64,000 bases of DNA from a virus (taxonomy: Duplodnaviria; Caudoviricetes), in IMG/VR virus record IMGVR_UViG_3300020049_010822, positions 35,852-99,851 of that record; one strand, given 5' to 3'. Within the stretch, counting starts at the first letter, position 1, and each line of letters opens with the position of its first letter. The notes beneath the pieces were generated by a model. It worked only from the letters and a program-made list of their open reading frames with translations. It searched no databases and was not told the origin of the DNA. The position numbers and the translations under genes were made by a program. Of this stretch, positions 2,474 through 29,510 are shown in pieces.

Positions 2474-2477
2474 TCAA

Positions 2478-2765
2478 ATGGAGAAAAAGCTTTATATAGT
2501 TTCAATCCATTCTCATGGAGGTAGCTTTTGGGAAGCCTCTGGAACTCATCATCTCGTTGAACTCACTGAAAAGGAACACAAGCGACTTGCTGAAAAATAT
2601 CAGTACAAAGAGATTGGTCCAGAGCGATTCGTATGTATAACTCCCATTGAAGAGATATACACAGCCCCTGAAATATTAGACGTGATAATGACTGATATTA
2701 AGGAGCATGAATACGAAGATGATGAAGACGACAACAATGAAACCGTACACGAATCAATAACTTAA
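2478..2765 (+). CDS. hypothetical protein, paralog A
   Basis: MEKKLYIVSIHSHGGS..., similar to the next ORF, acidic tail. Confidence 0.65.
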   Translation: MEKKLYIVSIHSHGGSFWEASGTHHLVELTEKEHKRLAEKYQYKEIGPERFVCITPIEEIYTAPEILDVIMTDIKEHEYEDDEDDNNETVHESIT

Positions 2766-2769
2766 CATC

Positions 2770-3030
2770 ATGAGTCAAAAAAAGAAAGTTTATTTAATCT
2801 CTCTACACAGTTTTCAGGGTAGTATGAGAGAATCTACCGGCGATCATTTTGTTGCTTCTCTTTCAGAGGAAGAGGTAATAAAATTAGAAAAAGAAGTAGC
2901 AGGGATGCACGAAGAGAAAGAAATGTTTATTGAACCGGTGACTGAATTACTGCAATTTTCTGATGTTTTAGTTAAAGCACGTGAGTTTATGAACGAAGGC
3001 TTTGAAGAAAATACCGAGTTAGAAGAGTAA
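2770..3030 (+). CDS. hypothetical protein, paralog B
   Basis: MSQKKKVYLISLHSFQGS..., similar to the previous ORF. Confidence 0.65.
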   Translation: MSQKKKVYLISLHSFQGSMRESTGDHFVASLSEEEVIKLEKEVAGMHEEKEMFIEPVTELLQFSDVLVKAREFMNEGFEENTELEE

Positions 3031-3032
3031 AA

Positions 3033-3080
3033 ACAAAAAAGGGACAGTGACCGTTATGGCCGCTGTCCCTAATTTTTTCT
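3033..3080. terminator. bidirectional intrinsic terminator between convergent modules
   Basis: A-run, GGGACAGTGACC-GTTAT-GGCCGCTGTCCC, T-run. Confidence 0.85.
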
Positions 3081-3086
3081 ATACTC

Positions 3087-7661: not shown

Positions 7662-10600
7662 TTAACATTTTATAGTTGTTTCGTATATCTTTAAGAAGTC
7701 TTCTAGTGACATATTATCAGATTGGATAAGATTAAAAACTTCAGGTCCAAATTCTATTAAATTTAAAAATTTGTCTTGAATTTCAGTAACAAAGAAATAC
7801 TTACCATTACCAGCACTAACAAAGTCTCCAGCTTGTATATTTTTATTTCTCATCTCCCCTTTTATTTTCGCAGTGTGGGTATGAGTAGTATTAATAGACG
7901 GAATTATTTCAGCCCCATTATTAAACACCCAAGAGAGCAGTTCTTGTTCCTTAAGAGCAGTCTTTAATGCTCCTATCTTTTCATTCATCTCTTCCTCCCT
8001 TTCTCTAAATGGTTCTAAGAAACCTATCTTATCTCTAAGCGCCTTAGCGATTTTATTTCTAAGGGTAGGATTACTATTTAAAGGATTTAAGATGCTGCCA
8101 TCTACATAATAGTTTAGATTCTTATCAAGCTTCTCAACTGCAGATAATATATGGTTAGTAATCCCAGTTAATTCTTCCATTGTAGCATTTGGAGGCAGTT
8201 CAGCTATGGGTAATTTTATAGCCGTGCTTTCATCTGTACCCTCGTTAGAAAGAAGTCTGGCTCTTTTATTTTTAAATTGTATATCTCTATACTCTTTTAA
8301 ATTACTAACAGTTACCACTGTACCAAGATTTTCGTTTAGAAACTTAGCCATAAAGTTCTTTAAATCTACTGCTTCATCTGTCTTAGTAATTGGAAAAGAA
8401 CCTTTATAAGTTAGAGCGTATACTATCTTATCTGGCAACTTTGAAACTTTATCCACAGCGTAGTATCTTATAGTATTAGCAGAGGCTGAACTTTTAGGAA
8501 AGGCATATATTACTTGTCCTTTTTCAAACTCGTGAGTTCTATAATCAGTAGTTAGTTTACCTTGAATTATATTAGACGTATTTACTATGGGGTACTTTCC
8601 AGATTGAAGCGCCCCTAAATCTAAGGAAGCGTCTAGTTCTGAAGGCTCAAAATGATAAAATCTACTGCCAGAGTTTTCAGTTAATTTTGTATAGTATGAA
8701 AAAGGCGAGCCAGGTGTTTTTATTAACAAATAAATACTATCATCATACCTACGTAAAAACTTAGCACTAGTATCAGAGTAAGGTTTCTCGTACTTTAAAT
8801 CAAAGTATATATCAGTTCCATCTACATTATCAACACCAGCAAAAGATTCTTGAGTTCTGTCAGCTGTCTTTGTGCTTCTTTGTAAGACCGGTTTTAACTT
8901 AGTAGTTTTAGATACTAAAGAAGGATTATTCTTTAAAAACTGAAACATAAATCTATCCTTAAGTATTGCTAAGTTTAGATCTGTTTTAGATTCCCCCTTA
9001 GGTATTACACTATTTAATCTTTGGTCTAATGCTACCCCATATTTAACTACCCAGTGAGCCGGGAATATTAAAGCGAAGCCTGTCTTTTCGTAATACATGG
9101 CTTCTCCCATTAAGGCATACTTAAACAAATCTTGAGCTCAATCGGCACGAGTATATCCAGAAGATATCTCTGTAGAATCCTGCGTTAATTTCAAAAACGC
9201 ATCTCTAATCTCTTCTAATACTTCCTCATCATTAACTTTATCGCCTATAATCTGAAGTTTAGATAATCCATTATTCTCTATACTTGGTTCCAAAGCTCTA
9301 ACAAAAGAGTTAGTTTCTAGATCAGGAGAATCTATTAAAGTAATAGCTTTATTTACAAAGATTTGAGCCCAAGCTTCTTTGCCTCTTAGCATCTGAGAGG
9401 CCGTAGTATACTCTATCGTGTCTGGTATGTTAGTAGTGAAAGTCTTATTTTCTAATTCAAAAGTCAGATTAGAAGCTAAAAATTTAATAAGTTCCTTACT
9501 AACTATATCCACTTTCTCTAGCTCATCTGTTCCAGTATAAATATTAGCTTCTTTTAGAAGAGCCTTTATGAAGTTCTGAACTACAGGATTATACACAGCA
9601 AAACTGTTCTCAAGTATAGATTTAAGTTGTAATAAAGATTTGTAAGTAGCAAATACGTGTGGTATTCTTAGTATGGCTACATTACTAAACACACTGTTTG
9701 CTCGCTCAACAGTTCGATTAACTCCTCCTCTAAGAACCCTGTTTACAAAAGAGGCTCTAATAGAAGCAGAGAGAGTTCCAAAAAGCTTGCTGTTCTTTCC
9801 GCTTGTGGCTGTACTCACTTCTGCTTCAGCCATCTTATCAGCTTCTTCTGCGTTCTCTTCAAATTTAAGTTTATAATCTTCACTTTGAGTTTTGTAATTA
9901 TTCAGCAGTTCCGCCTTTACAGCCGCTTTAATATTAGACGATGTGTTTACTTCATCCCTAAATTGGTTATGTTTCTCAATCTTGTCGATTAAAGAATCCA
10001 CTTTCCATTTCTTATTCGGAAGACTTCTTAAAGCTCCAAATATTTGCGCGTATTCAAACAACTCTTCTCCCACAGGAATAATCTTATGTATAGAAGCCAT
10101 TACTACAGCATTGGATAACAAAGTAAGATCATCACTAGCTTTACCTACATAAATCTTATCTAAAATTTCTGTTTTAATATCTAGATTTTCTAGTACATCC
10201 ATCAACTTTCCTTCCTTTATATCGGATAGTATACTTGCCACACTGTTCTTGCCTGTATATTCTTTTAAAACTTCCGTTAAAGCTTCATCAGATAGAGCAG
10301 ATATAGACTTTAGTAAATCGTCTATATAATTTTCTTTTATAATTTTGGCGCTCCATCTAGAATTCTCATTTGCCTCCATTAGCAGCGGAGTCTTAAATAT
10401 TTTAGAGACTGTGTTAAGAGGTACCCCCATGCCTAACATAGTTAAATAGGTGTTAGCATTAACTCCAGTGATACCTAGAACAGATAACTTTTGTTCTTTT
10501 ACGTTATCTATGGCAAGGTTAATAACAGTATCAATAGTCTCGAAGTTGTTTATCTCTTTTCCATTAGGACTTAACTCCTTAATGGTAGTCCTTCTCATAG

Positions 10601-11183
10601 TATTAGCTTTAACGCCATCTATAGAAAGGGAGTTCTTTGGTGTCAATTCCACCACTTCTCTTGCGTGTACTTTATATCTATTAGACTTTTCTAGTAGGGC
10701 TTCAGCAGAGTAAACACCCTCTTCTTTTAGAAGTGTTTTAAAATCATCTAATTTGGTTTCAATGATGTCTCCTGTTTTAGTATCCAATACCGCAGATATG
10801 GTAGCTCCATCTAAAACATATCCAAATGTTTTACCAAAGTTAGCGGATATGCCTGTAAGATCAATACCTGCATAAGTATTATATCTAATCTCTTCTTGTA
10901 CTGAATAGTCAGTAAGTTGTCCTGAAGGATTCAATTGCTCTTCTACTTCTTCAGCACTTAATAATCCTTGAGTGATTATACCTTTTTTTTCACGTTCCAA
11001 TCTAGCCCACATCTCGGATAGGGATTCTGGAGATTGTTCTGTATTATATTTAGAAACTATATCCAAGGCAAGTTTGGTGGGAGAATCTCCTAAGAGACTC
11101 CCCACACCGTTTACCAATACATAGTCTTTAAATTCTTCTTGAGTGTATTCTACACCCTTAAAAATTATTTTACAATTTAACAT
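7662..11183 (-). CDS. virion RNA polymerase, C-terminal subunit (~1173 aa); TGA=Trp at 9138-9140
   Basis: Track ORFs 9138..11183 and 7662..9128 join in frame (GAT TGA GCT CAA GAT TTG TTT); carries GIDLTGISAN and LAIDNVKE blocks typical of the region after the catalytic loop in crAss-type RNAPs. Confidence 0.75.
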
Positions 11184-14100
11184 ACTAATTGTATTAAACC
11201 TGCTTTTTGTAAATCGTTTATAAATTCTTCATTAGATAACAACTTACCTAATTCTTCTAGTGTTTCACTCCTTAATCCTTTTACAGCCTTGAAGCTAATA
11301 GGAGTTAAAAGATCCTGTCTGTTTTTAAAATCTAACATATTCTTTGAGAAAAGATCTATGATATGATTCTTAGCTGAAGATTCAGCAGCATCTGCAAGAG
11401 TGTTTAACTGTTCATTTAAAGCTTCTATTTGCTTTCTAATTTCCGTTTGTTTAGGTATAGAAAGTTTTAAAGCCGGATCGGAAACACTTAACTGATTAGT
11501 GAGAGTCTCTATCTTTTTAGAGACCTGATTCATTACCTTCTCTAAATACTGATGTAGATATAAACCATCAATAACTACCGCTCCATTCTCCCCAAAGCCA
11601 GGCATATTAGAACTAGTTAATACTAATCCATTATCATACTCATGGCTATCTAAATACGAAGATACTAAATCATTCAAGTCCATGTCTTTTCCTGCATGTT
11701 TTTCTTTACGTATTACAAAGAGTGAATCGACATCATACTTTATTGTTCATGTGGTTTCGTTAATCTCACACCGTTAATTACAGCTGCATTTTGCAATGCA
11801 GAACAGACTATATCTTCATCCTTGTCGGATGCTTCCCATTTCGAACCACTTGGCCCTACCGGACGTTTCCGCCCGTCTATATTATATGAAATCTTATACA
11901 TCATTTCTGGTATTTGTGATACATAAGGTTTAACTAAATCAATAAATTTAATAGCATTTGAAGTTCCGCAACAAAGTGAAAAGGTGCCTTTCCCTTCAGA
12001 AATAGCATAGAATTTAATATCCCATACTTCATTGAAATAATCTATAATAATTTGCAATTGTTCTTTTGGTAAACAAGTGGCAATTCTTACATAAATTCCA
12101 AAGTTGCCTCTGTGGTTTAAACAACCATCGTCCATAAACCAGATAGCCAGACCTTGTGCGTCTAATCTATTTAGCATTTTTCTATTTGCTATTACTTTTC
12201 GCGTACTCTTATAAAAGACCCTTCTTAATACTTTTATAAATGGATTTATATTTAATCGGGTATAATAATAGGTTTCTCCTATTTTATAACCTTTTGTACT
12301 AATATATGAATTTACTCCAGAATTTCTAATTCCGTTGTTATTCAGTAGATCAACTTTTCATTGTAAATATTCTTTTTGTTTTTCACAATGTGTCATTCTA
12401 TATCCATTCGTTGAACTGATAGAGCCGTCTCCTAAGAGCATAGCAATCATTAAATTTCTTGATTCTTTATTAAATTTTGTTTTCATATTTTTATCGTTAC
12501 ATTATAGAACAATATTCTAGATTAGTCGTTGAACCGTCCTCTAAAATTTAGAGGCTTGGCTGCTGATTACCCTCGTGGGGCTTCCCAGCAATTAAAGAAG
12601 TTTTAATCCGACAATGATATTTATCGGAACCGTGATAGTAAACCACAAGAGAAGGCGCAATAACTATGTTACCTTTAGATCCTTTAGGTACTGGGTAGAA
12701 ACCTACTACTTTTAATGGTAATAAAGAGTGATAGTTAGTAGAAGGTATACGGAAACCTACTAGTCCATTTTCAGAACCAAAGGTAAAGGCATCGCCTTCT
12801 TTCATAAACTCTCTATAAGTCTCTGGAAGTATAATCTCGCAGTAGCCATCTTTATCTCTAAACTCTAGCTTACGTTTCGTCCATCTTCCAGTACTTTCAT
12901 TATAAAGCTCTTGCAATCCCAAGTCTGCTTGTAACACTAACTTGGAACCTTGGAATTTAAATCCAGTAGTAGCCTTAGTCATGAAAGACGCAATTGTGCT
13001 CACAACCCGTTCTGAAATCAAAGGTAAGTTTAACGACGCTTTTTGTTTAGTTTCTGGATCTACTGCCTGCAACATCTCTAACACGTCTCTACCTCCTGGT
13101 AATCCTTCAAGAGAGCTGATAACCCTTTTAGTTAACATGGCTTTAGAAGCTGAAGAAGCTCCTCCTTTTCTTGTTAACCGTAAGGCTCTAGATACTCTGC
13201 GAAGTCCGTTTGTTATTAGGAACGAGTTTAGCTTATGTAGATCAAAAGACTCCGCGAAGTTAGCACCATTGGTATTCATAAACGCAGTTCCTTGTGAAGG
13301 ATTAGCTACATCTTTATCTGTATCAGCAGCAGGGTTTAATTGAAATCTAAGATTGCCGTTATTTATATTTAAGAATGTAGAATCGTTTACGGAGTCTAAA
13401 AGTAGATTGCCATCTTTTTGATTTAACTTGGCTAGTTTAGAAGGAAGACCAACTTTAACTGCCGACTTAAACACCATTTGATCCGCCTTAGCTTTTCTCA
13501 TAGTATCCCGGTAAGTACCTAAGTGTGGATATCTTTCAACAAGTTCGTCTGTTAGAACCTTTACAGAATATTTTACAGCCGTAGGTATACCATTCTCTAT
13601 AGAGAAATATACCGGCTTCATTACTATATCCGTAAGAGATTCTATACCGTAAGTTCTGGCTACCTTTTCATAAAATTCTGGTAACATAAAACCTTCAGCA
13701 TCTGAAGCGTCATAAGTATCACGATACGAATCAGCAAGTACTCCTTCCATATCCTGAGGTATATTTAACTGCAGGTCATCTACAACAAGTATTCTAGAAG
13801 TAAGAGGGATGCCGTAGACAGAATCTGTAAGAAGTGTATCCCCAGTAGCAGTGACAATTTGTATCCGTTTAGTTTGGTCCTCTTTGTTCTTGTAGAATGT
13901 TTCATCACCATATAACAATTGCGAAGCTGAATATTGATTTATAATAGAATTATAATAGAACATCTCTATTGCTGCCCCTATTATTTTATTACGTTTATCA
14001 ATTGCCTCTTGTTTTACTTCATCAGTAGCATCTTTAGCTGCAAGAGGAGTTACCACACCTAAATTAAAGTACTTGGCAGTTCTTTTTAAATCTGCTTCTG

Positions 14101-17100
14101 CTATTCTGATTTTAGCTGGTTTAGTTAAAGAGTGCTGTTGGAAATCTTTCGCTATTTCAGCTGCTTGTTTCTTCACATGCTCTCTCACTGCTTTCAAAGC
14201 TTGAGCTTCAGTCATAGAATCTACACTACCAGAAAGTCCCGCAAGTTTCCATTGTTTCCAATTAGGAACTCCATTTTTATCTTTAGCTAAATAAACTTTA
14301 GTGTTAGCTAAATCTGGATTATCTTTTGGGTCGGGTCTATTTTTCTGGGCTTTAATGATGCTAGCTAGAGCTTTTGAAATCTCTTGATCTTTTTCTGTCT
14401 GTCTTAAAGCTGTAACCTCTACTGCCTGTATTGTGGTACGATTAGAAGGTATGGGCAAGAACTGAAAATAGGAAGAACCAAAACCAACCTTAGTGAAGAA
14501 TCCAAATACTATATTACGTTTTCTAAAGTCTTTTAAGTTCTCTTTAGTTAGGTATTTAGCGTCTGAATCGTTACCCTTAGTTTTTAAACCATCGTGATCT
14601 ATAAATCCAGTAATGTTATTAATACCATTAAAGAATATGTTATCTTTTAAGAATCTATCATTAGAAGTTAATTTCTTTCTGTCTTTATTAAACTCGAAAG
14701 TAGAAAACTTTTTATGAGGTAGATTCTTACTAGTCTTATCTAAGGCCCTCATTATAGAGGTTAATAACTGTGACTGATAGGAACCATCTATCCAACCATA
14801 AGCTTTTTTACCATCCGCTCTAGTGTAAGAGTGAGTTTCAGATAATTGATAGTGGTTATTAAGAACATCTACTAGATTACGTAATAACTTAGTTTCTGAT
14901 TTTAATAGATTACTACCTCTTCTCTCATCATTGTATTCCTCTATACTCTGATTCTCTTTAACCCCGGCTTTATACTTTGCTTGCATTTCCTCTAAAGCGG
15001 GATGAAAGCCTTCAAACATAATGTCTAACTGAGCACTAGTAACTTCAGTAATTTTTCTCTTAATCCCTACTACATTAATAAAGTCTTTTAATGCTTCTCG
15101 TTTAGCTTCTACATCACTAGTAGACGCCTCACGTATTTTACGTAAAAGAGCGTCTGTAAATAGTGTATTACCTCCCAAGCTGTTTGTATACTTATCAAAC
15201 TTATTAGCTACGTAGCTTTCATGGATTTGTTTACCCCCACCTGTTTTAACTCGTATATACCTAGATTTGTACTCACCATAGCTGTACTCATCTATACCCA
15301 CATGAGGTAAATTCTCTCTTAAAGAAGATACCGCTGCAAGTAACGATCTGACAAAATCTAAATCTTCAAATAAGAAGTACGCTTTAGAGACACTAGTATA
15401 ATCTGTTTTAGTAACAGCAGCTATACTTTTTATTAAATCATCCATACTTCCCCCTTCTATTTGGTGAAGAGTTCTGTATTTAGTTGGGTTCAACTCAACG
15501 TCTCTAGTCGTTGCTTCTCCTACAGGAGAACCATCTGTAGATACTAAAGCATATAAACTTTTGTTTGAAGCGTCCTTTCTAAACGCAATGTCTTTACGTA
15601 ATGCGGGGTCATTAAATTGATTTTGTATTCTTCTTACAGTGGAGAGCATGAATCTTCCAGTTGCTGTCCTAATATTAGGAGATAACTTGGAAGACTTGGC
15701 TGAGAAAGAACTGAATGCTTGTTCCAGAGCGTCTAATGCTGTCTGCATAGAATCTACTGGAATAGAAGCCACTCTAGGGAGTATAATAGAGAAAGCCTCT
15801 CCTAATGCAGCATAATCTTCTTCTCCATCTTTTAAATACTTAATAGATATAAGACGTTGCTTAACATTACCAGTAAGTTTAATTGAAGGATCAGAGAGCT
15901 CTGTATCGAAGGTCTCAGCTGAAAGGGCTGACATCTCACTGTCCAGAGCTGCTAATTCTTTATCTAATTTTTCTCCAGCTTCAATTCTAGTATTTAATTC
16001 CTCTTGCTGTTCTAATAAAGCATCCAACTTTTGTTGTTGCCGTTCGTCGTATAGACGTCTAAGTGTATCTCTAGTTTGTGCTTGTCCAAAGAAAGTATCA
16101 ACAAAAGACTTGGATAACTTAACATTATCCAGAACCTTACTTAAAGCTCTCTTACGAAAAGCTAGTTGTTCTCCAGTATCTTCTGGAAAGAATTTCTCTG
16201 GAGTTCTACGCATCTCTGCAAGACGTTCAAAAGTAGCGGTTATAACTTCTGAAAAAGACATTACTTTACCATCTCGTCTAGAAAATTCGATATCAGTAAA
16301 GTTAGAGATGATAGCTGCCTTAACAAACTTGTATTCGGCTAAGTTATCAAAGTTAGCTGCTATGTTTATCTGAGCTCTTTCTACTTGTCCGTTCTGGATT
16401 TTTCTATTATAAACTCCACCTTGAATGGAACTAAAGAATTTTTCTAAAGAAGATAAGTTATTAAATGTAAACCCAAGTAGACGTAACAGCTTTTGCCAAA
16501 ACACTTGAAACACATTAGGCTTCTTTGTTATAGAGTAGGTCTCAAAATCAACAGCCAGTTTTTCTTCTAAAGCTACTTCATCTAAATTACCCCATTTCTC
16601 TTTAGCTAGAGATAATACTTGAACTTGTTCAGCAGGAGTTAAATATTCCCAGAAGATTTTGTGGAACATCTCGTGCCTAACTGTTCTAGATCCTATCTTA
16701 CCGTTAGTATTTAGTGCATAGTTTATGACCCCATTTTTATACAGACCCCAAAGTGTTTCTCCTCGGTTATTTACAAGCTCGCCGAATTTAAACATTCTAA
16801 ACACTTCAGAGCCACTTTTCTTTTTAAAGAAAGATTTAAAGAGTTGGAAAGTACTAGGAGGATTAATTCTAGTCATTAACTCTTCTACTTCTTGAGGTGA
16901 TAGATCTTCTCCAAGATCTTGGTCTACACCTTGGAATATTTGAGCTCTTTCAAATTCACCTGCCTCTACTACTTTCGCAGCAGCATCATAATAGTCTTCT
17001 TCCTCGGTAAGCTTTTGTAATTCTGCTTTGAAAGCTACGTTATCAGGATGTTCTAACAGAGCATTGAATTCTTCTTCGTTATCCGCAGATTCTAATAATC

Positions 17101-20100
17101 GTTTAGCGAAATCAAAAAGTGCTCCTTTAGGTGCTGGTATTGCTGGATCATCGGTATTCTTTAACAATTTCCTTACTTTAGAGGATAGGCTAACAATTTC
17201 AGCTAGTGTAGGAAATATATCCTCCATGATGTTTACTTCATGTACAGGATTTTGTGTCTTATAAGAATTATTTATGTCATTATAAGCTTGAACTACTTGG
17301 TTAAAACGTACCATTAATTCATCATCCGACATGCCTAAATCTTCCGCAATAAATTGTACTGTGTCTAAAAAGTCTTTTTCACTTCTATTTTTACCCGAAT
17401 AATAATCTAACCGAGCTAGATCGGAAACCATCATTAAATACTTAGGGGCACTAACCCCAAAGATTTTAACAAATACAGCTCCTCTGATGTAATCTCTAGA
17501 AGCCAAGATCCCAGCGCTTCTGCCTACACCCTCCACTTTAAGTGAGGTTACAAGCTCAGCTTCAAGTTGTTCACGAAGAGTTAAAGAACTTTCTCCTACA
17601 TCTTTCAGAGCTTGGTAAATATTCTTATTATTAGTAGTAACTTGAGCCTTCTTAGTATTTTGTCTATACGACATTACTGCACCTTCAAAAGTAGCTTCAT
17701 TCATGAATAACATAAATTCAGCAACTACTTCTAACGGATACTTAGTTCTTAGTGTCTTAGGTAAGACTTTAGTGTCTCTAACATCTCTAATTAGTTGTTG
17801 GAGTGGGGAAATCTTTTGAACTTCTACCTCTTGCGGAACATCAGGAGCTAGCATATCGGGAGAAGTTCCTACTACGATCTTAGTAGGTACTGCCTTTACG
17901 AAATTAGTTTGTAAGATATCTTTAACTCTTACTCCGCTAGTTGTAGATTCTGCTGAAGCATCAAACTCAGCTCCAAGTGGAGTTCTAATTCCAAATCCGT
18001 CAGAAAGATTGGAAAGTCTGCCAGAAGAGTCTAATCCATCTACAAGTAATCCTTGAAGATCTTTTGTAGTTATAGGATTTAAATGTACAATACTTTCTTC
18101 TCCTGCCTTGATAATCTCTTTTACAAACGTAGCTCTAGATGTGTTGCCCAAACCTCTTTTCTCTAAACTATCATTATAAACTTTAAGTCTATTGATAAGT
18201 TTATCTTTCATCTCCGCGTTATAAGCTAAGCCTTTTTTACGAACAAACTTAATAGGACCTAAAAGACTTACACCAGAAGAGTGTGTAACTGTTCTTTTCT
18301 CTGTAGATTTATAGTCAGATTTTCTATAATCTCTAAGTATTACATTAGTCCCGTCCGGAAGAGTGGTTATAAAGTTTTGCTTACCTATAGCATCAATAGC
18401 TTTTTGGGCAGCTCCTTTGTATTGTCTAACTTCTCCCTCTCCTACATCTCCGTGTACTAGAATATCCATTTCGTAAGCTAACTGCATCAATTCCTTAGGA
18501 ATTTTATCACTGCTTACTGGAGGAAAAACACCAATTAAATTCTCACTGTTAAACAACAGCACATCTTCTACCTTACCTCCTTGCGAAGCTCTGTAAGCTT
18601 TTGCTAAAGATATAACAAGAGAATGAAAAGGGTAATAAGATTCTCTACCTATAACAACAGGTTTACCATTTCTAAGCTCAGAAAGTTTTCCGGGTAATCC
18701 TGAAGTAGCTAATAAAGTCTCAAATCTCTTTAGCTTATCTAGAAAAGCGTATAATTGAGATAACTGAAAGTCCGGTCTGTCCGGGGTGTTTTTATTAAGA
18801 ATGGTAGGCACTAATCTAATAAACTGATTTTTCATAGGTTGTCCACTTCTTGTCTTCATATTATATATGATAAGATATGGAGGCCCTAATCTAGGTCTTT
18901 GTTTATCTGACTTAGCACTTGCAAACCACTGGCGTACTTGCTTTTTAGTTTTAAAGGATACAATCTTAGTGTGGTTGTCAAAGTTATTTATAATATCCGC
19001 ATAGTTTTCAATGTAATCCCCAGGATTTTCCCCGTAAAGAGTTTTGAAATATGTGGTTAGGATAGATAGCTTTTCTAACTTACCTTCTCCATCTACATCC
19101 GCTGTAAAATCATCAGTAGGTTGCGGAGAATAGATATATTTAATATCTGCTGTAGTTGGCTGTATAAATAATTTATACGAAGATTCAATTGTTTCATTAG
19201 GATTTATTAAACCTGAAAGTCCCGTTTCAGAATTTTGAAAGGTGTACCCTTTTAAAGTAGCTAAAGAAGGGATCTTTAAATTGGTTTCAAACTGCCCAAC
19301 TTCATCTTCACTAAGTATAGCAATCTTTCTAAAAGCAAACGGAGCACCATCCTCTAAGATGGGTTGTAATATTAAATATCTAGTAGCTGCAGATCCATCT
19401 CTTTTTGGAGTTACATCTTTTACAACTATAACTTCATCACCAGATTGAAGCGCTGGTAAATCTTCATCTAAATTAGAAGAGGCTAATACATTAGAATCTG
19501 GATTTCAAAGACTATGAGTGCCTTCTGGAACTAATATTTCTCCGCCTTCATCTACATCTTGTTCATTACCTTCATCAGCAGTTTCCTGCTCATCTTCTGT
19601 ATTGGTCTCTTCTTCCTCAAGCTCTTCTTCTACTGCTTCTATTTCCTCTTCTTCAGTAACAACATCCTCAGTAATCTTAGATAGGATATCTATTTGAGTA
19701 GTTAAAGTTTCTATAGCAGTAGTATTCTTGGTTTCCTTAGCAGCCATTACTTTCTCTAAAGTTTGAGGGATACCTCTGTCCTCTTTAAAGGTAGAATCTG
19801 GAATATTAGCTACATGTACAAAGGTAGTTGCTCGTGAAATAGCAGTATACATCCAGGCATTAAATACCTTGGACACACCTAAAGCCCCACCATCTGTCAC
19901 TTCTACATCTATGTATACTTCATCTCTAGTGATACCTTGAGCTTCTGGAACAGTTAGAATTTCGGCATGAGGGAATTGAGCTTGATACTTTTGTTTCTTT
20001 TCTTGTGATCCAACTAATATAGCTCGACTTCTAGAAGGATTAGATAATTCGCTACTTCTATAAACATTAGCTATGTTGTTTTCTTTCTCGGTAAAGCTAC

Positions 20101-23100
20101 CTATTATATTTGTTGTAGATATAATAGGATTAAGACTAGCCGCAGATTGAATATCTTCTACTTTATTAATTGATTTAAAAGCATTCTGAAGATCTACTAT
20201 CTCAGCTACATCTGAACGGTACGTTACAGAAAGAGGAGATATAGTTTGTATGTTCTCTATGAATGGAAGAGTAGCGTGGTCATTAGACATCCGTACTCCT
20301 TTCCTATACTCTAGTTTTGTAGCTTCAGATCCTTCCCAATAAGCCCTTTCAGATATTGCAGGTTCAGCACTAAAGTTATTATCTATAGGGGCTTCAGATA
20401 CATTCCCTGGTGTGATCTGATTTGGGTCATAAAGAAATATAAACTTAAGCCCAGCATCTGGATTCTCTCTGTTGTACTTGGCGAATGCTGCTGCAAATTT
20501 ATTGATAGGCTCATTTAAGAGAGCACCAACTTCATCTACAACAATAAGTTTTACTCCTTTAGCAAGACCGTTTGTGTTTAGGATATTTGTAAGTTCTTCT
20601 ACAGTGAAAGGACCTACTGGTGAGTCCAGAGACTCCTTGATATTCTTAGCTGCTAAAGGTTGCGGAGCTGCTGTTACAATCTCTTCTCCGGACAGTTTTA
20701 ATACATGCTTTAACAGTTTTGATACTACTAAAGATTTACCCGCTCCTGCAGGAGCTTTTAATGCAGCTCCATTTTGATATAATTCATTCTGTACTTTATT
20801 TGGAGCCATCGTAAAGAGAGCTAACTCTCTAACAACCCGAATTTGGGAAGTAGATGGTGTAGGTGCAGTAGGATTCTTTTTTAGATAATCTCTAACCGAA
20901 TTAAGGAACGACACATTATTGAAACCTGCAGCTTTAGTTTGTGCAATTTGTTCTAACGCTATCAGTTGTGTCTGAAGTAATAATAACTGTTGTAGTTGTT
21001 CTGCAGTTGTTACTCCTACGAAAGAATCTAAATTCCTTGTAAACCTTACGACATCATAATCTTTTACAAAGTTCTCAAGTGCTAATAAATTCTTTGAGTT
21101 AGCATCCGCAGTAGCAGATTCCTTTTTTAATATTAACTGAAACAATCCCCCAAAACCTCTGGTAGGATGTGTTAATATTATGTTAATATCTTCTGGAGTT
21201 AATTTATAATTAGCAGGACTGGTAGTTAAATCGAATACAGAAAGAGCGGCTAATTGTTCTTTAGCAGAAGTCATTACACGAATCTTTATCGCGTTATAGT
21301 CTTCCTCTGTTCCTTGTGCTATCAAATCTGCTGTAGCCATAGATCCTAACACTGGATCTAGTTCTATGAGCTTATTCAACTCTGCATTCTCTGGAGCTAA
21401 TGAATTAACACCAGCAGCATAGTGAAGATCTTCCAGCTTATTTTTTAGATCTTTGTTAGCTCTATTTTCCTTTGCTTTAACTAATATTTGTTTTAACGTT
21501 TGATGTAGTTTTTTAGCTTCTGTAAGAGCTGGTTTATAAGCTGCATCTTTCTTAGCTAAAGGTATTAACCCTTTATTAATTAAAATCTCTAATTTAGCTA
21601 TCTCAGTTTCAACGCCAATAACATTATCATACTCTGGAGAAATATTTTCCCCATCCCATTGTGAAGCGTTTAGAATCCTATTAGGTGCATTCAATAAACC
21701 TTCTACAGCTCTAACTTTAAATACCTTATCATTAGTATTTATTTCAGGGAAACCTTCTAGATCTTTTAGCTTCTGTAGCACGTTTACAGTATCAGTATCA
21801 AGATTACCTAAGGCATCTTTTATTGCTTTCAATCTTTCCCATTCGGCATAAGCAGCTTCTTGGTCAGCATCAAAAGCTTCATAGTACTCTAATTCTGATT
21901 CACTCCAACCTTCGGATTCAAACTGTGCAAGCAAAGCTCTATAAGGAGTATTAATTCCATCTAGATAAGATATTATAATATCTCTCAGCTTAGCTACTTC
22001 ATCTGGATAGAGTGTGTATTCGTTATCTAAAATTCTATTAGTTAATGTTCTAAGAGAGTCTGCAGATTCTGGAGTGTATCCAGTTTTGGTTAGATACTTA
22101 ATAAACAGATTTATAGCATCAGCAAAGAAAGCGGTTTTAGCTACTTTTACTTTATCTTGATGTTGTAGCAACTGCCCATTCTTGTCCGCATAAGTTTCTA
22201 GATCTGCTTCAGTAAATTTATCATTAAGAAATATTTCTCTAGACTTTTCTCTAGAGGTTTTACCGTAAGATAAAATACCTTTTGATACAGCTTCTTTATA
22301 CGCATTAAAACCTTTTTTAGGTTCCAGCATCTTAGTGTAAAGCCCGCCTAGTTCTTCTCTAGCCTGTACTAAATCTTTACGTTTTGTAGAGAGCTCCGCT
22401 ACTAATGTTTCTTCTACAGAATTTTCCTCTGTAGTCTTATAAGGAAATAGTGAATCTAGTTGATCCGTTTCTTGGAAAGCCGTTTGTATTGTACGAAGAC
22501 GCTCATAATTAGAACTATTAGTAATAACATTATTTATCTCTTTATCTACATCTTCTATTAAAGTATCTAAGTTAACTATTCTACCACCAACTTCAGCTGC
22601 AGTGTCTCTGAATCTTCTTAGAGCTTCATCTGTCTTTGGAGCAATAATAGCATTATTAGTAGATAGATAATTTGCTTCTAATCTTTCTATATGTTTTTTC
22701 CAACGTTCTACAGTAGTTTCTATTTCTTCTGGATTCTCAATGCCCGCAGCTTGTAACTTCTCTGGAGAGAGTTTCTTGTAAGAATCTAGCTTTTGAAGGA
22801 GAAGATCAGTAGAGCCATGCTTGAAAGCCTTTTGAGCTAAGTTGTTTAGTTTAGATAATTGAAATAAAGAAATCTTAAGATTATCCGATCTATCTTTAGA
22901 AGCTTCAGATTCAATGAAATTGTCAAACTCAGAATGCAGCTTAGCATCAGCTGCAAATTCTGTCGCTTTGGACTTATCGATTAGAGGAGCCCCATTCTCA
23001 TCTACTGGAAGTTCTCCGGGAACAGTATACTCCCCTTTCTCATTAGCATTATAAGTTTCTTTAATTCTTTGATAGGTTTCAGGATTAATTTCTTGTACAA

Positions 23101-24544
23101 TCTCTTCTGACTCATCAAAATATTTAGTAACTCCATCCTCTGTTTTTATAACTAACTTACCTTTCTTATCTTTAGTCTTAGACATTATACTAGAAGACAT
23201 AAAGTCAGTGTAGGACTTTTGAAGTTCGTTAGTAGCTAATTCCCTAGCTTCACGAATAGTTCTAGCCTCTCTTATGGCTCCGTGTCCTGCCGCAGCAGTA
23301 AGTGCCGTTTGTCCCGCACCTATTAAAGATCCTAAAGCGGTAGACTCTAAACGAGCATCATCTGAAAAGTCTAATCCGTGTAACAAGAAATCTTGCGCTA
23401 AATCTTTACCGCTTTCTAAGAAAGATCTGTGTAGATTAGAAGCATCGTTTACTTTTTGTATAGAGTATTGTAGATCCTCTTCAAAACCTTCTGATAAACC
23501 TTGTTCTAAGAACCTTTTAGTAAACATTCCTGCGGCATGCCCTTCATCAAATAAAAATTTATCGAATCCAGAAGCGTAGGTAGGTTTCTCCGCCATGTTC
23601 TCAATACCATTCATTATCTTCAAACCTTGTTTGTTAGTTCTAGTAGCTACAGACGAGGGAGCGTAGATGGGTTTAACAAGCTTGGTGAAGAATCCATTAG
23701 TTGCAGCACCAGTCAACATATTTAACCAAAACACATTAGTTAAAGAGTTCTCTGCAGCCTTTTCTATTTCTTGGTCAGACATGTTATTCTTGCCCTCCAT
23801 CCTATCCCTATGGAGTTTATCTGCAACAGTCTTCTTAGAGTCCATTGCCTCCATAGCAGCTTCATTAGTAGTCAAGAATACGTTAAGAGCAACCTCGTCA
23901 ATGTTACCTGCTATCTTAGCTAGATTAGGAGCAGCAAGCTCACTAAATACAGCTGTAAAATCTTTACCTTTAGCTAGCTGGTTTACTAATCTAGTACCCA
24001 TTTGAGCTTTACCTAGGAGACCTGCTAAGCCGAATGACTGTGCTAAGAATCCTATTGTCTCTACATTGGCTGTGGCGAGTTGCCCCGGAGCAGTGAACAG
24101 TTTTTGTGCAAAGCCCATATCTTGATACTTGGCTTCTTGAAAGTGTGGAAACACCTCATCTCCATAAGCATTAATGGATTCCGCCATGTTCATGAATGGA
24201 TTGTCATCGAAACCATCAGAGAAATTACCTCCAGTTAAAGCGGAGAAGGTTCCTTTACCTAATCCTGTGATTCCACCTACAATCGCTGGAACTCCGGATA
24301 CAGTCTTTACACCCACATCTCCAGCAAAGTTTCCGAACGCATCTAACCAGGATTGATTCTGATAACGAACATCGGTCTGATCTGCAAAGTCTTGAAGACC
24401 TTTATCATAGTATCCGGCTCCTGTTAGATTTCTTGCTACCCAACTACCTTTGGTACTGTCATAGTATCCTCCTCTTTCTGAGGTAACAGGATTTGTGTAT
24501 TGCCTATCTTTTAGGCCGCTGGATATTGTACTTAAATCTGGCAT
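11177..24544 (-). CDS. giant virion protein (~4160 aa): N-terminal cargo region + SF1 helicase + zincin-like motif + RNA polymerase N-terminal/catalytic part; join(24544..12623,11737..11177); TGA=Trp at 19505-19507
   Basis: Frame stays open for 215 codons from the TGA at 19505 to the track start at 18859; helicase motifs APAGAGKS, VVDEVG, YDPNQ, TVPEAQGIT, YTAISRA; RHEMFH; FRIPS...GSD|YDVD catalytic motif after splicing. Confidence 0.8.
11738..12622 (-). mobile_element. group I intron (885 nt) in the RNAP catalytic motif
   Basis: Exon ends ...TCCGAT and pairs with intron GTCGGA (P1, U-G at splice site); core words AATTGCTGGGAA, AATCAGCAGCCAAG, GTTCAACGACTA, AAGATATAGTCT; terminal G at 11738; P10 ATATCAT/ATGATGT; splicing restores GSDYDVDSLF. 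Confidence 0.92.
11740..12486 (-). CDS. intron-encoded LAGLIDADG homing endonuclease (248 aa), TGA=Trp at 12358-12360
   Basis: MIAMLLGDGSI...QKEYLQ[TGA]KV...GLAIWFMDDG: two LAGLIDADG-type motifs joined only by TGA readthrough. Confidence 0.88.
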
Positions 24545-24547
24545 ATT

Positions 24548-26479
24548 TTATTGTGTTAATTCTTCATTCTCTAAATCTGCTTTCCGCTTATGGGGCATCC
24601 AACTATTTACTTCTTCCCAAGGTAAAAGCATTCTTTCCATCTCTGAAGTGGTGGCAGCGCCTCCCCCTACAGTAAAGGGATCTCCATAATCAGTAAGTTG
24701 TGTACCATTTTGTCCTTGTTTCACAGGATAATAAACTATGTGCATTCTACCATCTACATATTCTTTTCTTCCCTTAGCATAAGTTACTCCACCGGTTTTA
24801 TTATTTCTAACGGGAAATACTTCACCTTCATCCATTGCTGGATCTTGGATAAATCTAAAGGCTTTGTTAAGCACTTCATCTTGATAGTTCTTAACGTCTA
24901 CCCTGTTAGGAGCTACAAAATAATAATCTCCTTTACCATATGGATCTGGCATTACTACAGATCCTGAAGGAACATGTCCTGTATGACCTCTAGCTCTACC
25001 CAAAGCACCATAGTCAGCTTTTAAAGGATTCTTTTCATTAGCTAGTTTATTAGCAAAAGATATTCGGTCCTCAGCATCTATTACTTTTTCTATTTTGCCC
25101 GTTTCATTATTCTTCTTATATATCTCATAAGTTCCTTGTAATAATCCAGGCATTAATCTATTAGCTTCTTCTTGTTGAACTGGAGTAGTGTTATAAGCAT
25201 CATAATCTATCCTACCGTATTCTCTTACTCCTGAATCTTTAGATGTTACCTCATTATACTTACGAATAATATCTGAATCTGCCATATTAGGGTTAGCTTT
25301 CTTTATGGATTCTAACCTATCATAGTTATAATTAGGATTAGTTCTATTTGCTAACAAAGCAGAAACATTAGTTGGTACTTTTTTAGATGTTAATCCTAAA
25401 GCTTGTGTTATACCTAGTGGGTCAAAAGCGGGCATCGGAGCATCAATAGCTTCTGGTATAGGAGAGAATTTACTATTTGCATCTCCAGCTACCGTAAGAT
25501 ACGAAGACTGGCCTCCATTTGTAGTTCCAGCGTTATCTAATTCGTCTTTAAACTTGACTCTCTTCAAAGCATCTTGATGGCGCTTTTCAGCTAAAGACCA
25601 TTGTTGTTTAAACTCATAATCAGATTTTGTTTTCCAATCTAATTTGTAATCTAGTTCCTGAGAGTCTTCTAAAATTCCAGTACGAGTAGGTATCACAAAA
25701 TCTTTGTAATCTTGTATTTGATCGGCGAACATCTTTCCAGGATCTTCTCCATACAATTCGGCCATTTGATATACATACCCTCTAAGAGCGTCGTTGTTAT
25801 AGGCAGCAGCCTCAAAAGCGGACGCAACTTCGTTAGGATCAATATATTGTTTTTTGGTAGTAATGGATTCTATCTCTCCATTAATTATACGCCCAGTTCT
25901 TTGGGCTCTCTCTATTGTTCTTGGTTTTATTTTAGCTAATACATCTTCAAACTCTTTATGAAAATCTTGATACTTTGCTAAATCTAAAGGCCTTATTTGA
26001 GAATAAATTCCTGTAGCAGGATCTAATTTAGTAGGTCCTTGTTTTTGATAGAAACCTTCCAAACCTGAAATTTGCTGTTGTGTAACTTCTCCTTTAGCTA
26101 GACGCTCTCTTTCCCTTTTAAGAGAATCTTGTTGTAAAGCAAAATTGTTTTGTATGGCAGCAGCCTCTCCTCCCGGCCCGTACAACTTAGCCATATCAGC
26201 TTGAAGTTTATAAAGATCCTTTCCCGCTTGAGAATAGTCTCCATTATATTTAGAAGCTACCTGATCTATTCGAGATTCAAACTGACTCTGTAATTCATTA
26301 GCTCTGGCCCTATCCTGTACACGAGCTTGGATGTATTTATTCTTCATCCCCTGTGCAGTAGCAAAATTAACATCATACTGCTTCTGCGCTTGCTCTAAAG
26401 CTGCCCCAATAAATTGTACTGGAGGAGCATAAAGTTCTGGCCTATATTCAGACCCTCTATAGAAACGATTAACCGGCAT
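24548..26479 (-). CDS. virion cargo/ejection protein
   Basis: 643 aa, position directly upstream of the giant RNAP gene, coiled-coil-like N-terminus. Confidence 0.6.
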   Translation of the reverse strand: MPVNRFYRGSEYRPELYAPPVQFIGAALEQAQKQYDVNFATAQGMKNKYIQARVQDRARANELQSQFESRIDQVASKYNGDYSQAGKDLYKLQADMAKLYGPGGEAAAIQNNFALQQDSLKRERERLAKGEVTQQQISGLEGFYQKQGPTKLDPATGIYSQIRPLDLAKYQDFHKEFEDVLAKIKPRTIERAQRTGRIINGEIESITTKKQYIDPNEVASAFEAAAYNNDALRGYVYQMAELYGEDPGKMFADQIQDYKDFVIPTRTGILEDSQELDYKLDWKTKSDYEFKQQWSLAEKRHQDALKRVKFKDELDNAGTTNGGQSSYLTVAGDANSKFSPIPEAIDAPMPAFDPLGITQALGLTSKKVPTNVSALLANRTNPNYNYDRLESIKKANPNMADSDIIRKYNEVTSKDSGVREYGRIDYDAYNTTPVQQEEANRLMPGLLQGTYEIYKKNNETGKIEKVIDAEDRISFANKLANEKNPLKADYGALGRARGHTGHVPSGSVVMPDPYGKGDYYFVAPNRVDVKNYQDEVLNKAFRFIQDPAMDEGEVFPVRNNKTGGVTYAKGRKEYVDGRMHIVYYPVKQGQNGTQLTDYGDPFTVGGGAATTSEMERMLLPWEEVNSWMPHKRKADLENEELTQ

Positions 26480-29400
26480 TTGTTGATTTTGTTTTTTGTT
26501 GTTCGGCCATTATTCTAGCGTATACATCTGGATACATTTTCTGTAATACTGCTAGTGAGTCATAGGCGATTTTCTTTTCATTTAATCCTTTACCAAAGTT
26601 ACCTAAACTATTGGACGCTACGTCTACAGCTTCTTTATAAGCAGCTCTATTTCTAGCATTAATATCATTAGTACCTACAGTTTGTCCTATATTATATCTA
26701 CGTTGATCCGATTGTCTTGCTTCCTGTTGTGTTCTAGCAGATTGATTCATCTGATTGTACTTAGTTAGGATATCAGAATCTTGATTCAATTTACCTACAT
26801 ACAGATTATTTAGGAAAGATCTGTTTTGATTTATAGAAGAGTTTTGTAAAGTATTAAGTCCTTGTTGGAAATTTCTGTTAGCTTGGTATAAAGGATTAGA
26901 AGGATCGAAATTCTCTTTAGTTATATTTGTAGTATCGTAATAAGGTTTTTCTACTTCTGCTCCTCCTGCCAACTGTCCAAACTTAGAAGCTACTGTTAGT
27001 GCTTGTAATCCATCTCCAATAGTAAATTGAGATCCCAAACCTGCAAGAGGACTCGTAACTGAATTAGTGCTATTTTGTCCAAAGGTAGCGGCACTAGCAA
27101 TATTAGGTAAAGCTCTTGCTGGAGCAGTAGATGTTACTGGTTGTGTAACTGGACCAGTTCCTACTCCAGAATCAAATTCTCCTCTGTAAAGAGGTAAATC
27201 GCCAGCATTAGCAGAAGCTAACATTTGTTCATATGTAGATATATCATTAGCTATTTCACCAGGAGCAGGTGGAGGAGCTGTAGGATTTGTTTTAGAAGCT
27301 TTGGCAGCACCCGGACCCCTTCTTTTATTAATGGCAACAGGTGAAATAACTGGTGCAGGAGCAATAGGAGGAGCTACCACTGGACGAGGGAAAGCTCCTA
27401 AACTTGGATCTTCTGGTGTGTTAGTTAACACATTAGATGGAGTCTCTAATCTTGGCCCAGGAGCTCCTGAGCTTTCTATTTTCGGAGAACTCATAAATCT
27501 TAAATGTTCATCCACATTGTAAGATCTATTATTGGTTAAATCTCTGATGTTAGATCCGTTTACTTCAAATTGGCCTGCGTTAGGTTGTACTCCTACGTAT
27601 TCACCTTTTGAATTTCTTACAGTAAATTTCTTAGAATACGGGTCGTAAAACAACCCATCTCTACCTAAATCTATGGCCGCTTGCCCTGCTCCCAATCTTG
27701 AACCTATAAAAGTATCTGGACCTATCGGTCTACGCCTTTTTCCTGTTGCTGGATTAAAAGGATTAGTGATATCCAACCATTGAGTTGGAGATATATTAGC
27801 AATAGGTAATTTGTTATTATTTGTTTCCCCAATAAAAGTATAAGGAGGATCTGTAGGGTCATCTGCATACCCTCCATAAGCAAAATCTCTAGTAGGTTTT
27901 CTTAACCCTTTAGCTGTAGCTATAGTTTCTTGAAGTGTAGCCAAAGACTGCATAGCGGATTCATTCATCTTTATAGTGTTTTTAGCTGATTCATCCTGAG
28001 GATTGGTCATCAGTTTTTTCTGAGCTTTACCTGTGGAGTTCTCAATCTTAGCAGCCTCAAATGAAAATGGTTTACCGTTAGGGGCTTTAAGCTTAGTAGA
28101 ATAAACAAAGTTTTTCTTAACCACTTCATTATGATCTAAATTAGCATTTAACTCTGGATAAGAATTACCATCTGTAACATTGGGGGCTCCTTTTACTTGG
28201 AATGCACTATTGGATAACATTTCATCTGGCATCTGTCCTCCAGACGCATATCCTATTCTAGTGCCATAAGATGAAGGGGTTTTAGGTGCGAAGGATCTAC
28301 CTCCTGTTCTACCCACAGTGTTTTTAACGGTGTTGCCTAAGAAGTTAACTTGTTCTGGAAGATTAAGTTTACTCACACCTTGAGATAACATATTACTAGT
28401 AACTTCAGCTCCAACAGTAGCCGCTCCTCTAGTAGCCATAGCAGTTCCTATTCCCGTAGCTTCTGGTACCATCATAGCTAATCCTAGCATTTCAAGTCCT
28501 CCCGCATAATTCATGGGGGAATCGGGGAAGTTATTAGGAGTATAATCTGAAGTTTGATATTTAACCAATCGTTCCCCCATTGGAAATTCAGGTGTGGGGG
28601 ATTCAACTTTCTTATCATTAGTAGGTTTAGAGCGTTCTCTATACATTAGAGCTGTTCTAGTTTGGTCGCCTACAATTCCATCTTCTTTAATTTTCTTCCC
28701 GCCCTTGCCTATAAGTTCTGATTTTTTAGAATCTTTAGCATAAGACATGGCATACTCGGCTTCTTTATTAAAATTCTTTTGATAAGCCTTTACTGCAGCT
28801 TCTGTTTGAGGACCATAAATACCATCAGTATTTCCTTTATAGTACCCTTGGTTTCTAAGAAACTGTTGTAACTGAGTTATCTCTCCAGGAGCTTCTTCCC
28901 TCATTCCTCTACGTAGTGTTTTTCTTCCAGAAGAGTCCGAGCCTTTAGCCTTATCCTTAGAATACATGGTGTATTCGCTTTGTGCTGTAGTAGGTACTAA
29001 AGGTCCTCCAGAATCCCTTTCTCTGAACCTATCTCTCGATTTAGATTTAGATGATCCTCCCACGGCTTCATTTATCATTAATGGTTTTACATATCCAGGT
29101 AGTTGAACTGGAGTAGGCATAAGACCAGGTATCATCAATTGATCCATCACGTTGATTTGTGGAGTTGGAGCTACCCCCATATTAGGCAAATAGTGAGAAG
29201 GTCTAGATCCTCGGCTAACCAATACGGGAGTTGGTTGGATAGGACCACCTTGTTGATAATTACCGGGTGTAGCCGAAGCTACGTAAGCACTTCTGCCCTT
29301 CTTATCTTTAGAAGCTTTAATTAATTCTGGAATCATCCCAACCAATCCCGATGTATAAGCTTTAGACCAGTCTGCTTTGTAAGCAGGGCCATTGGGATTA

Positions 29401-29510
29401 AATTCATACTGAGCAGCATTAACAAAATCTCCCGAAAGCTTAGTAGCGTAATCCATTAACATGGAGATTTCACCACCGGAAAAATAATTCTTTTTTCTTT
29501 GTTTTTTCAT
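26469..29510 (-). CDS. cargo protein with peptidoglycan-binding domain and repeated xxGG motifs
   Basis: LQQFLRNQGYYKGNTDGIYGPQTEAAVKAYQK and DGIVGDQT (PG_binding_1 signature); NYFSGG, NYQQGG, RDSGG, GYASGG, FAYGG. Confidence 0.7.
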   Translation of the reverse strand: MKKQRKKNYFSGGEISMLMDYATKLSGDFVNAAQYEFNPNGPAYKADWSKAYTSGLVGMIPELIKASKDKKGRSAYVASATPGNYQQGGPIQPTPVLVSRGSRPSHYLPNMGVAPTPQINVMDQLMIPGLMPTPVQLPGYVKPLMINEAVGGSSKSKSRDRFRERDSGGPLVPTTAQSEYTMYSKDKAKGSDSSGRKTLRRGMREEAPGEITQLQQFLRNQGYYKGNTDGIYGPQTEAAVKAYQKNFNKEAEYAMSYAKDSKKSELIGKGGKKIKEDGIVGDQTRTALMYRERSKPTNDKKVESPTPEFPMGERLVKYQTSDYTPNNFPDSPMNYAGGLEMLGLAMMVPEATGIGTAMATRGAATVGAEVTSNMLSQGVSKLNLPEQVNFLGNTVKNTVGRTGGRSFAPKTPSSYGTRIGYASGGQMPDEMLSNSAFQVKGAPNVTDGNSYPELNANLDHNEVVKKNFVYSTKLKAPNGKPFSFEAAKIENSTGKAQKKLMTNPQDESAKNTIKMNESAMQSLATLQETIATAKGLRKPTRDFAYGGYADDPTDPPYTFIGETNNNKLPIANISPTQWLDITNPFNPATGKRRRPIGPDTFIGSRLGAGQAAIDLGRDGLFYDPYSKKFTVRNSKGEYVGVQPNAGQFEVNGSNIRDLTNNRSYNVDEHLRFMSSPKIESSGAPGPRLETPSNVLTNTPEDPSLGAFPRPVVAPPIAPAPVISPVAINKRRGPGAAKASKTNPTAPPPAPGEIANDISTYEQMLASANAGDLPLYRGEFDSGVGTGPVTQPVTSTAPARALPNIASAATFGQNSTNSVTSPLAGLGSQFTIGDGLQALTVASKFGQLAGGAEVEKPYYDTTNITKENFDPSNPLYQANRNFQQGLNTLQNSSINQNRSFLNNLYVGKLNQDSDILTKYNQMNQSARTQQEARQSDQRRYNIGQTVGTNDINARNRAAYKEAVDVASNSLGNFGKGLNEKKIAYDSLAVLQKMYPDVYARIMAEQQKTKSTNAG

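Follow-up and report, generated by a model that had tools for sequence, protein, structure and literature searches.

A 64,000-nucleotide stretch of the IMG/VR virus record IMGVR_UViG_3300020049_010822 (positions 35,852 to 99,851, the right-hand 64 kb of a 99.85-kb contig; hereafter the window) carries on its minus strand a giant gene that very probably encodes a single polyprotein of 4,160 residues. From the N-terminus onwards, its parts would be a module like those of phage phi14:2 gp67 and crAss001 gp47, a superfamily 1 (SF1) helicase, an acidic linker, a middle region, a zincin-like module and an RNA polymerase of the phi14:2 gp66 type, with the one in-frame TGA decoded as Trp (Table 1). 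The observations that carry this reading are the continuity and homology of the protein, the pattern of recoding across the genome, a tRNA gene, the anatomy of a group I intron and the folds of the modelled parts. The helicase-bearing fused polymerase is the new part of the finding; TGA-to-Trp recoding and the fusion of cargo proteins with the polymerase are already known. Standard annotation would give four unrelated open reading frames (ORFs) for this gene.

Translation of the minus strand from 24544 gives a frame that stays open for 3,998 codons, to 12548, with one stop, the TGA at 19505-19507. The spliced product of 4,160 aa joins 3,974 codons of exon 1 to 186 codons of exon 2, and there is no second TGA among them. 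A preliminary description of this DNA had proposed one gene from 24544 to 11177 with a single TGA, uniting a helicase and an RNA polymerase in one polypeptide. Both claims are borne out by the translation and by relatives, which encode collinear proteins of 4,100-4,200 aa as uninterrupted ORFs; the length of about 4160 aa given there is also correct, but only once an 885-nt group I intron (12622-11738) is removed. In five relatives (P0001, which has 4,158 aa and is 74% identical, P0004, P0005, P0009 and P0010) the protein alignment runs the whole length of residues 1-3974, and the ~186 residues that they have beyond it correspond to exon 2. At the DNA level the alignment of the same five spans all 4,160 residues. 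The junction region is covered by 22 relative proteins of 2,400-5,700 aa.

The N-terminal module aligns with residues 50-665 of phi14:2 g067 (hhalign probability 98%, E 1.7e-13), and hmmsearch recovers g067 at 2e-12 and crAss001 gp47 at 1.9e-4. The SF1 helicase motifs that had been noticed in the N-terminal part are confirmed by Pfam matches at 20767-19813 and by PHROG 325 (Dda-like helicase, 4.5e-12), and the acidic linker placed ahead of the TGA is present at aa 1626-1669. AAA_30 is matched at aa 1260-1356 with 36.5 bits (cut-off 27) and AAA_19 with 26.3 bits (cut-off 25.1), with weak UvrD_C_2 and Viral_helicase1 matches at aa 1494-1578. Walker A, Walker B and SF1 motifs III-VI are all present and conserved. 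Across seven aligned sequences, 41-75% identical to the domain in the window, GAGKS, DE, YDPNQ and EAQGITRDEVY do not vary, YTAISRA varies at one position, and YR.DV.EIV is also kept.

In an exhaustive search, the helicase domain was found in 122 clusters, nearly all of them proteins of 2,000-6,600 aa with the domain at about residues 1,100-1,900; 56 of these clusters have more than 1,500 residues after it. The domain is absent from phi14:2 g065-g067, from crAss001 gp47, gp49 and gp50 and from the 4,551-aa coding sequence of phage cr1_1, as searched with Pfam and/or a hidden Markov model (HMM) of 110 sequences. This distribution suggests that the helicase is an insertion of about 480-620 residues in a known scaffold. 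A search of the literature found no paper on a helicase module of a crAss-like virion polymerase.

The preliminary description had the polymerase region following the TGA and its start-less codons. The polymerase homology instead begins more than 1,000 residues after the TGA, past a zincin-like module. That module matches residues 2114-2218 of crAss001 gp47 (hhalign probability 95%, E 2.4e-8; hmmsearch 1.3e-14) and residues 2000-2100 of the cr1_1 protein. For the polymerase, a 10-member family profile finds phi14:2 gp66 at E 1.5e-16, in two domains of ~1e-9 each, and crAss001 gp50 at 5.5e-14 (10-sequence database). The catalytic motif GSDYDVD lies at aa 3972-3978 and appears only after intron removal; gp66 has GSDFDID at 1361 and gp50 has GSDFDVD. 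A model of the intronless orthologue in the related locus L003, with a predicted local distance difference test score (pLDDT) of 77, matches 6VR4_A in Foldseek at E 2.2e-24 and a template modelling (TM) score of 0.51, followed by QDE-1, RDR2 and P23-45 gp96. By profile and model, the C-terminal part is predicted to fold like the phi14:2 virion RNA polymerase gp66, of the two-barrel type, and to be an active polymerase.

Other searches were negative: single-sequence and profile searches of the PDB with both halves of the protein gave no match, nor did a search of the ESM Atlas with aa 1681-2480. A single-sequence scan of IMG/VR was likewise without a match, and an alignment-based scan gave two loci. 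Two candidate relationships were rejected. The profile matches point to gp50 and not to gp49 as the catalytic subunit in crAss001, and P0125, equal in length to crAss001 gp47, is unrelated to it.

The group I intron interrupts the polymerase active site. Its putative core is matched by Rfam RF00028 at 12632-12416 (42 bits, E 6.9e-9; below the gathering score of 50), and the 3' core is found separately at 11818-11786 (23.6 bits) because an ORF splits the core. From the sequence, the 5' splice site has a U.G pair and the intron ends in G at 11738. Exon 1 ends at 12623 with ...YYHGSD, the frame continuing to 12548, and exon 2 (11737-11180) begins with YDVDSLF..., so that splicing would rebuild GSDYDVD. 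Intronless relatives show GSDYD[IV]D across the insertion site, and L006 carries an intron, also with a LAGLIDADG gene, at the identical site. With its TGA taken as Trp, the homing endonuclease in the window scores 82 bits over positions 3-167 of the LAGLIDADG_2 profile; the half ORF scores 37 bits. The intron must leave the mRNA if the polymerase active site is to be restored, and splicing is predicted. In a wastewater metagenome, contigs match the intron core (11694-12584) at high depth, with joints that skip ~710-730 nt; with flanks of only ~20 nt these matches are weak, and they may represent related group I introns of other organisms that have no endonuclease ORF.

The TGA at codon 1680 is one of ~30 in-frame TGAs scattered thinly through the middle and late genes of this genome, usually one to three per affected gene. 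Their distribution is bipartite: in contig positions 1-20060, TGA is found solely at the ends of ORFs (about 10 genes), and from contig position 20061 onwards and in minus-strand genes it occurs inside ORFs. Among six TGA codons of the window that were compared, five are TGG or Trp in at least one relative. In the muzzle gene, each of the two TGAs corresponds to TGG in all three relatives, and L003 has TGG opposite the TGA at 9138. Family matches of TerL, the muzzle protein and the homing endonuclease reach full length only with TGA read through, the TerL match spanning two TGAs. The candidate decoder is a 73-nt tRNA gene at 60532-60604 on the minus strand (Rfam RF00005, 42.9 bits; cut-off 29), whose anticodon loop is CUUCAAA and whose anticodon is therefore UCA. 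Two identity elements of bacterial tRNA-Trp, an A1-U72 pair and the discriminator G73, are present in it. An exact-pattern scan of IMG/VR for its anticodon arm gave no match.

TGA-to-Trp recoding with suppressor tRNAs has been described in crAss-like phages (Yutin et al. 2021, PMC7886860; Lera phage, PMC12386605). We read the TGA at codon 1680 as ordinary TGA-to-Trp recoding for this phage through its own putative tRNA-Trp(UCA), with insertion of Trp predicted; being read like the ~30 others, it would be no special switch. At the aligned codon, L001 and L002 have TGG, L003 GAG, L004 AAG, L005 AGC, L009 CTT and L010 ATG, and no stop is found there in 10 relatives at the DNA level or in ~20 at the protein level. 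The orthologous genes of some relatives have TGAs elsewhere (codons 67 and 273 in L001, 2408 and 3888 in L004, 2380 and 2789 in L005, ~2678 in L006), and those of L002, L003, L009 and L010 have no in-frame TGA. The preliminary description had asked whether relatives have TGG or separate genes at this site. Both states occur, TGG in L001 and L002 and split genes in L015 and L016 ~25 codons downstream, and further relatives have other sense codons.

Several points weigh against a uniformly decoded, full-length fusion. Neither of the two closest relatives has Trp at the TGA site (L003 has Glu, L004 Lys); Trp at codon 1680 is supported only by L001, L002 and the other TGA sites. The tRNA(UCA) is atypical: its T loop is CUCGAAC, its D arm is weak, it was missed by ARAGORN, and folding at minimum energy does not yield a cloverleaf (z = -0.84). 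With such a tRNA, suppression may fall short of complete, and the truncated protein of 1,679 aa could be abundant. In L015 a helicase-bearing protein of 1,612 aa stops 13 residues past the motif EGTHxLxxPxS, and a gene for 2,504 aa starts through a TAATG overlap; L016 is split likewise. These splits, ~25 codons downstream of the TGA position, indicate that a protein ending near here is a natural form. The polymerase that was folded is the L003 orthologue, 76% identical, in place of the spliced product of the window. For the helicase, the model is poor (mean pLDDT 56), with only the first RecA-like domain modelled with confidence. The detection of a helicase fold, which the preliminary description had named as decisive, is thus only partly secured: AAA_30 and AAA_19 pass their Pfam cut-offs, and the top Foldseek matches are all SF1 (RecD, nsp13, Dna2, Dda, RecD2 and Sen1), but on this weak model and at TM scores of only 0.25-0.36.

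The split genes of L015 and L016 also mark the border after the helicase and linker as a real module boundary, and this raises the question of whether the TGA works as a hinge. The preliminary description held that termination at the TGA gives a stand-alone helicase protein and suppression gives the fusion, so that the efficiency of suppression sets their ratio. One part of this stands. The 215 open codons without ATG that it had reported after the TGA are there, and GTG and TTG are missing from them as well, the next in-frame ATG, GTG or TTG being at 18859. The initiator Met of the downstream gene in L015 aligns to Ile1706 here, and codon 1706 is AUA; with no start available, the polymerase half depends on reading the TGA. 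The other part, a TGA serving as a dedicated hinge, does not stand. Incomplete suppression selected to yield a stand-alone N-terminal-plus-helicase cargo protein and the full fusion in a set ratio is unlikely, and the same doubt applies to the idea that tRNA supply could set that ratio, with either form opening the incoming double-stranded DNA. The closeness of the TGA to the point where L015 and L016 are divided into translationally coupled genes would suit such an arrangement, as would the homology of the N-terminal module to a separately encoded virion protein (phi14:2 g067), the apparently non-canonical suppressor tRNA and a polymerase half without its own start. Yet no relative has a stop at this codon, the TGAs that relatives do have are scattered along the gene, and most relatives make the fusion alone. 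The gene holds 19 Trp codons, so one of them near some domain border is unremarkable. The truncated end also lacks a feature of the family: 64 of the 101 family proteins of at least 1,500 aa have a Cys within their last five residues, and none of the six ORFs cut at a recoded TGA, including the 1,679-aa one, has a terminal Cys. A readthrough hairpin was rejected, since no RNA structure beyond chance was found at the TGA (z = -0.28 in 81 nt and -0.38 in 141 nt spanning and following it).

If the TGA were instead a true stop, the polymerase part would have to be begun downstream by a non-canonical start or by re-initiation. Gene callers using table 11 do give the 1,679-aa ORF (P0023), and the divided forms in L015 and L016 are precedents for two genes. 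This is nonetheless highly improbable, because the stretch after the TGA offers no start, AUA stands where L015 has its start, the conserved motif runs across the TGA, and the start-less codons are under purifying selection, with a ratio of nonsynonymous to synonymous substitution (dN/dS) of 0.06-0.14 against L003, L004 and L001; many other genes of the genome require read-through of TGA in any case. It is very unlikely that the TGA arose by nonsense mutation and marks the genome as defective, or that faulty sequencing or assembly rendered TGG as TGA. A single transition separates the two codons, two relatives have TGG, and no read of the source sample was placed on 19505-19507, where the short fragments of the wastewater metagenome gave no call, but the ~30 in-frame TGAs with a like pattern across essential genes and the matching tRNA(UCA) argue against it, and the virion polymerase is indispensable in Crassvirales. 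Insertion of selenocysteine, for which the in-frame TGA itself would be the sign, is hardly credible: no hairpin beyond chance follows the TGA, the 73-nt tRNA(UCA) is Trp-like, and most other TGA sites of the window are Trp in relatives. Decoding as Trp within one continuous polyprotein remains the reading that we prefer.

Some TGA codons elsewhere show further features. The TGAs of L005 at codons 2380 and 2789 align to Asp (GAT/GAC) and not to Trp, and the Asp is conserved in all five (2380) or four (2789) of the other aligned sequences; misalignment or another decoding could be the cause. Where the genome is recoded, a TAA or TAG follows the terminal TGA of ORFs after one to three codons, at 1447-1851 on the plus strand and at 45452-45721 and 62689-63036 on the minus strand, which looks like a backup stop.

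Table 1. Parts of the giant gene and the proposed decoding tRNA, in window coordinates
Feature	Positions	Strand	Basis
Whole gene, 4,160-aa virion cargo / RNA polymerase polyprotein (predicted)	11177..24544	-	One frame, collinear with single ORFs of relatives over 1-4160
N-terminal cargo module, aa 1-1189	20978..24544	-	Homologous to phi14:2 g067 and the crAss001 gp47 N-terminus
SF1 (RecD/Dda-type) helicase domain, aa 1190-1650	19595..20977	-	Pfam, PHROG 325, alignment, Foldseek (weak model)
Acidic linker, aa 1626-1669, varies among relatives	19538..19669	-	Translation, alignment
In-frame TGA, codon 1680, within conserved motif EGTHxLxxPxS	19505..19507	-	Predicted to be read as Trp
215 start-less codons after the TGA	18860..19504	-	Coding, purifying selection
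Zincin-like HExxH...EE module, HEMFH at aa 2624	16445..16810	-	hhalign, hmmsearch
Exon-1 part of the two-barrel RNA polymerase, aa 2961-3974, ends ...YYHGSD	12623..15664	-	Profile and fold
Group I intron, 885 nt, within GSD/YDVD	11738..12622	-	Rfam RF00028, splice sites, intronless relatives
Intron-encoded LAGLIDADG homing endonuclease, 248 aa, with its own in-frame TGA	11740..12486	-	Pfam LAGLIDADG_2
Exon 2, 186 codons and stop, starts YDVDSLF..., C-terminal Cys	11177..11737	-	Sequence, alignment to relatives
tRNA, anticodon UCA, tRNA-Trp-like acceptor end; proposed TGA decoder	60532..60604	-	Rfam RF00005

The scaffold into which the helicase appears to have been set is shared with several known phages. 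In phi14:2, the gp67-gp66-gp65 block (PDB 6VR4; Drobysheva et al., bioRxiv 10.1101/2020.03.07.982082) has homologous N-terminal and catalytic modules and the motif GSD[FY]D[IV]D, but these are encoded by three separate genes, without helicase, TGA recoding or intron in the block. Its zincin motif is in gp65, whereas here the module is upstream of the polymerase, and gp66 continues for ~815 aa past the catalytic motif, as against 186 aa here. The giant coding sequence of the Suoliviridae phage cr1_1 (MT774380, QOR58537.1, 4,551 aa, annotated as 'hypothetical protein') is a collinear single polypeptide, with a zincin HExxH at 2001 and DFDVD at 3445, in the same order as in the window protein; it has no helicase, in-frame stop or intron. 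Fusions of cargo modules with the polymerase are thus already present in public crAss genomes, and they are mentioned in the phi14:2 preprint (bioRxiv 10.1101/2020.03.07.982082).

In crAss001, gp47, gp49 and gp50 are RNA-polymerase-associated cargo proteins that were seen in virions by mass spectrometry (Bayfield et al. 2023, PMC10172136). The N-terminus and zincin of gp47 match aa ~42-139 and ~2580-2700 of the window protein, and the catalytic region of gp50 matches the polymerase part. The three are separate genes on two strands and lack the helicase; the zincin of gp47 lies ~480 residues nearer the N-terminus, a distance close to the length of the helicase insert. With the recoded crAss-like phages (PMC7886860, PMC12386605), the genome shares a part in standard code, Trp-aligned TGAs, a tRNA(UCA) and LAGLIDADG introns in the transcription block. 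The recoding here differs in being sparse, at one to three TGAs per affected gene, and in covering replication genes from contig position 20061; the genome is ~100 kb and phi14:2-like, compared with the 150-190 kb of Zeta-group genomes. A functional analogy, with no homology claimed, can be drawn to QDE-1/QDE-3/RPA. QDE-1 is a structural relative of the gp66-type polymerases, and QDE-3 is a separate RecQ (SF2) protein, whereas the helicase here is an SF1 domain in the same chain.

The polymerase polypeptide ends just 186 aa past its catalytic motif. The next protein (7662-11183, minus strand; 1,173 aa) reads through the TGA at 9138, and its profile has a weak match to residues 1593-1708 of gp66, the trigger-loop region (E 5.6e-4, 10-sequence database). 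With so short a C-terminus and this match in the next protein, the polymerase may be split across two genes. The cargo/polymerase family (P0001-P0135) is nearly free of Cys, at a mean of 0.04%; the 4,160-aa protein has two, one of which is its last residue. The next genes begin with MxxC or MxC.

Gene content places the source phage among the crAss-like phages (order Crassvirales), with Cellulophaga phage phi14:2 as its nearest named relative. crAss ring and muzzle genes are present at the loci of relatives, and the window itself carries a crAss_MUZ gene, TerL and a portal gene. The closest named match of TerL is phi14:2, at 34.6% identity and 97% coverage, followed by Flavobacterium phages. 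Together these genes point to a crAss-like phage of a lineage that is absent from GenBank phage records, and tblastn against GenBank phages gave no match for the helicase domain, the polymerase region or three distant family members. The giant gene is in a minus-strand block shared with structural and packaging genes and is located after the muzzle and cargo genes, a position as in phi14:2. Upstream of it in the cargo block, a 1,013-aa protein (26469-29510, minus strand) has peptidoglycan-binding domains (PG_binding_1, 3.4e-13), consistent with a function in cell-wall passage at ejection. Adjoining TerL is a phage-encoded GroEL-like chaperonin of 535 aa (57561-59168, minus strand; phrog_5725, E 7.9e-130).

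Expression of the giant gene would require its mRNA to splice itself and ribosomes to pass codon 1680 with the help of the phage tRNA-Trp(UCA). The full-length fusion would be the main product, packaged and ejected like its phi14:2 and crAss001 homologues, and termination at the TGA would leave a 1,679-aa by-product without a dedicated role. The zincin module may process the polyprotein, as the phi14:2 authors suggested for fused forms. On single-stranded or denatured DNA gp66 transcribes well, and on double-stranded DNA poorly, and QDE-1 needs the helicase QDE-3 and a single-strand-binding protein on DNA (bioRxiv 10.1101/2020.03.07.982082). Because gp66 is poor on double-stranded DNA and its relative QDE-1 needs QDE-3, the helicase of the window protein may open the entering DNA, supplying the single-stranded template that gp66-type polymerases favour in vitro. 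By analogy, unwinding by the helicase may serve the virion polymerase; packaging and the transcription of early genes would likewise follow the homologues.

This essential gene combines three unusual layers of expression, namely code switching, an intron in the active site that would splice itself, and polyprotein fusion. Giant virion RNA polymerases start crAss-like infection, yet purified phi14:2 gp66 hardly transcribes double-stranded DNA. An SF1 helicase, conserved and with apparently intact motifs, in the same polyprotein that is predicted to be injected, suggests a testable answer to how such a polymerase obtains its template.

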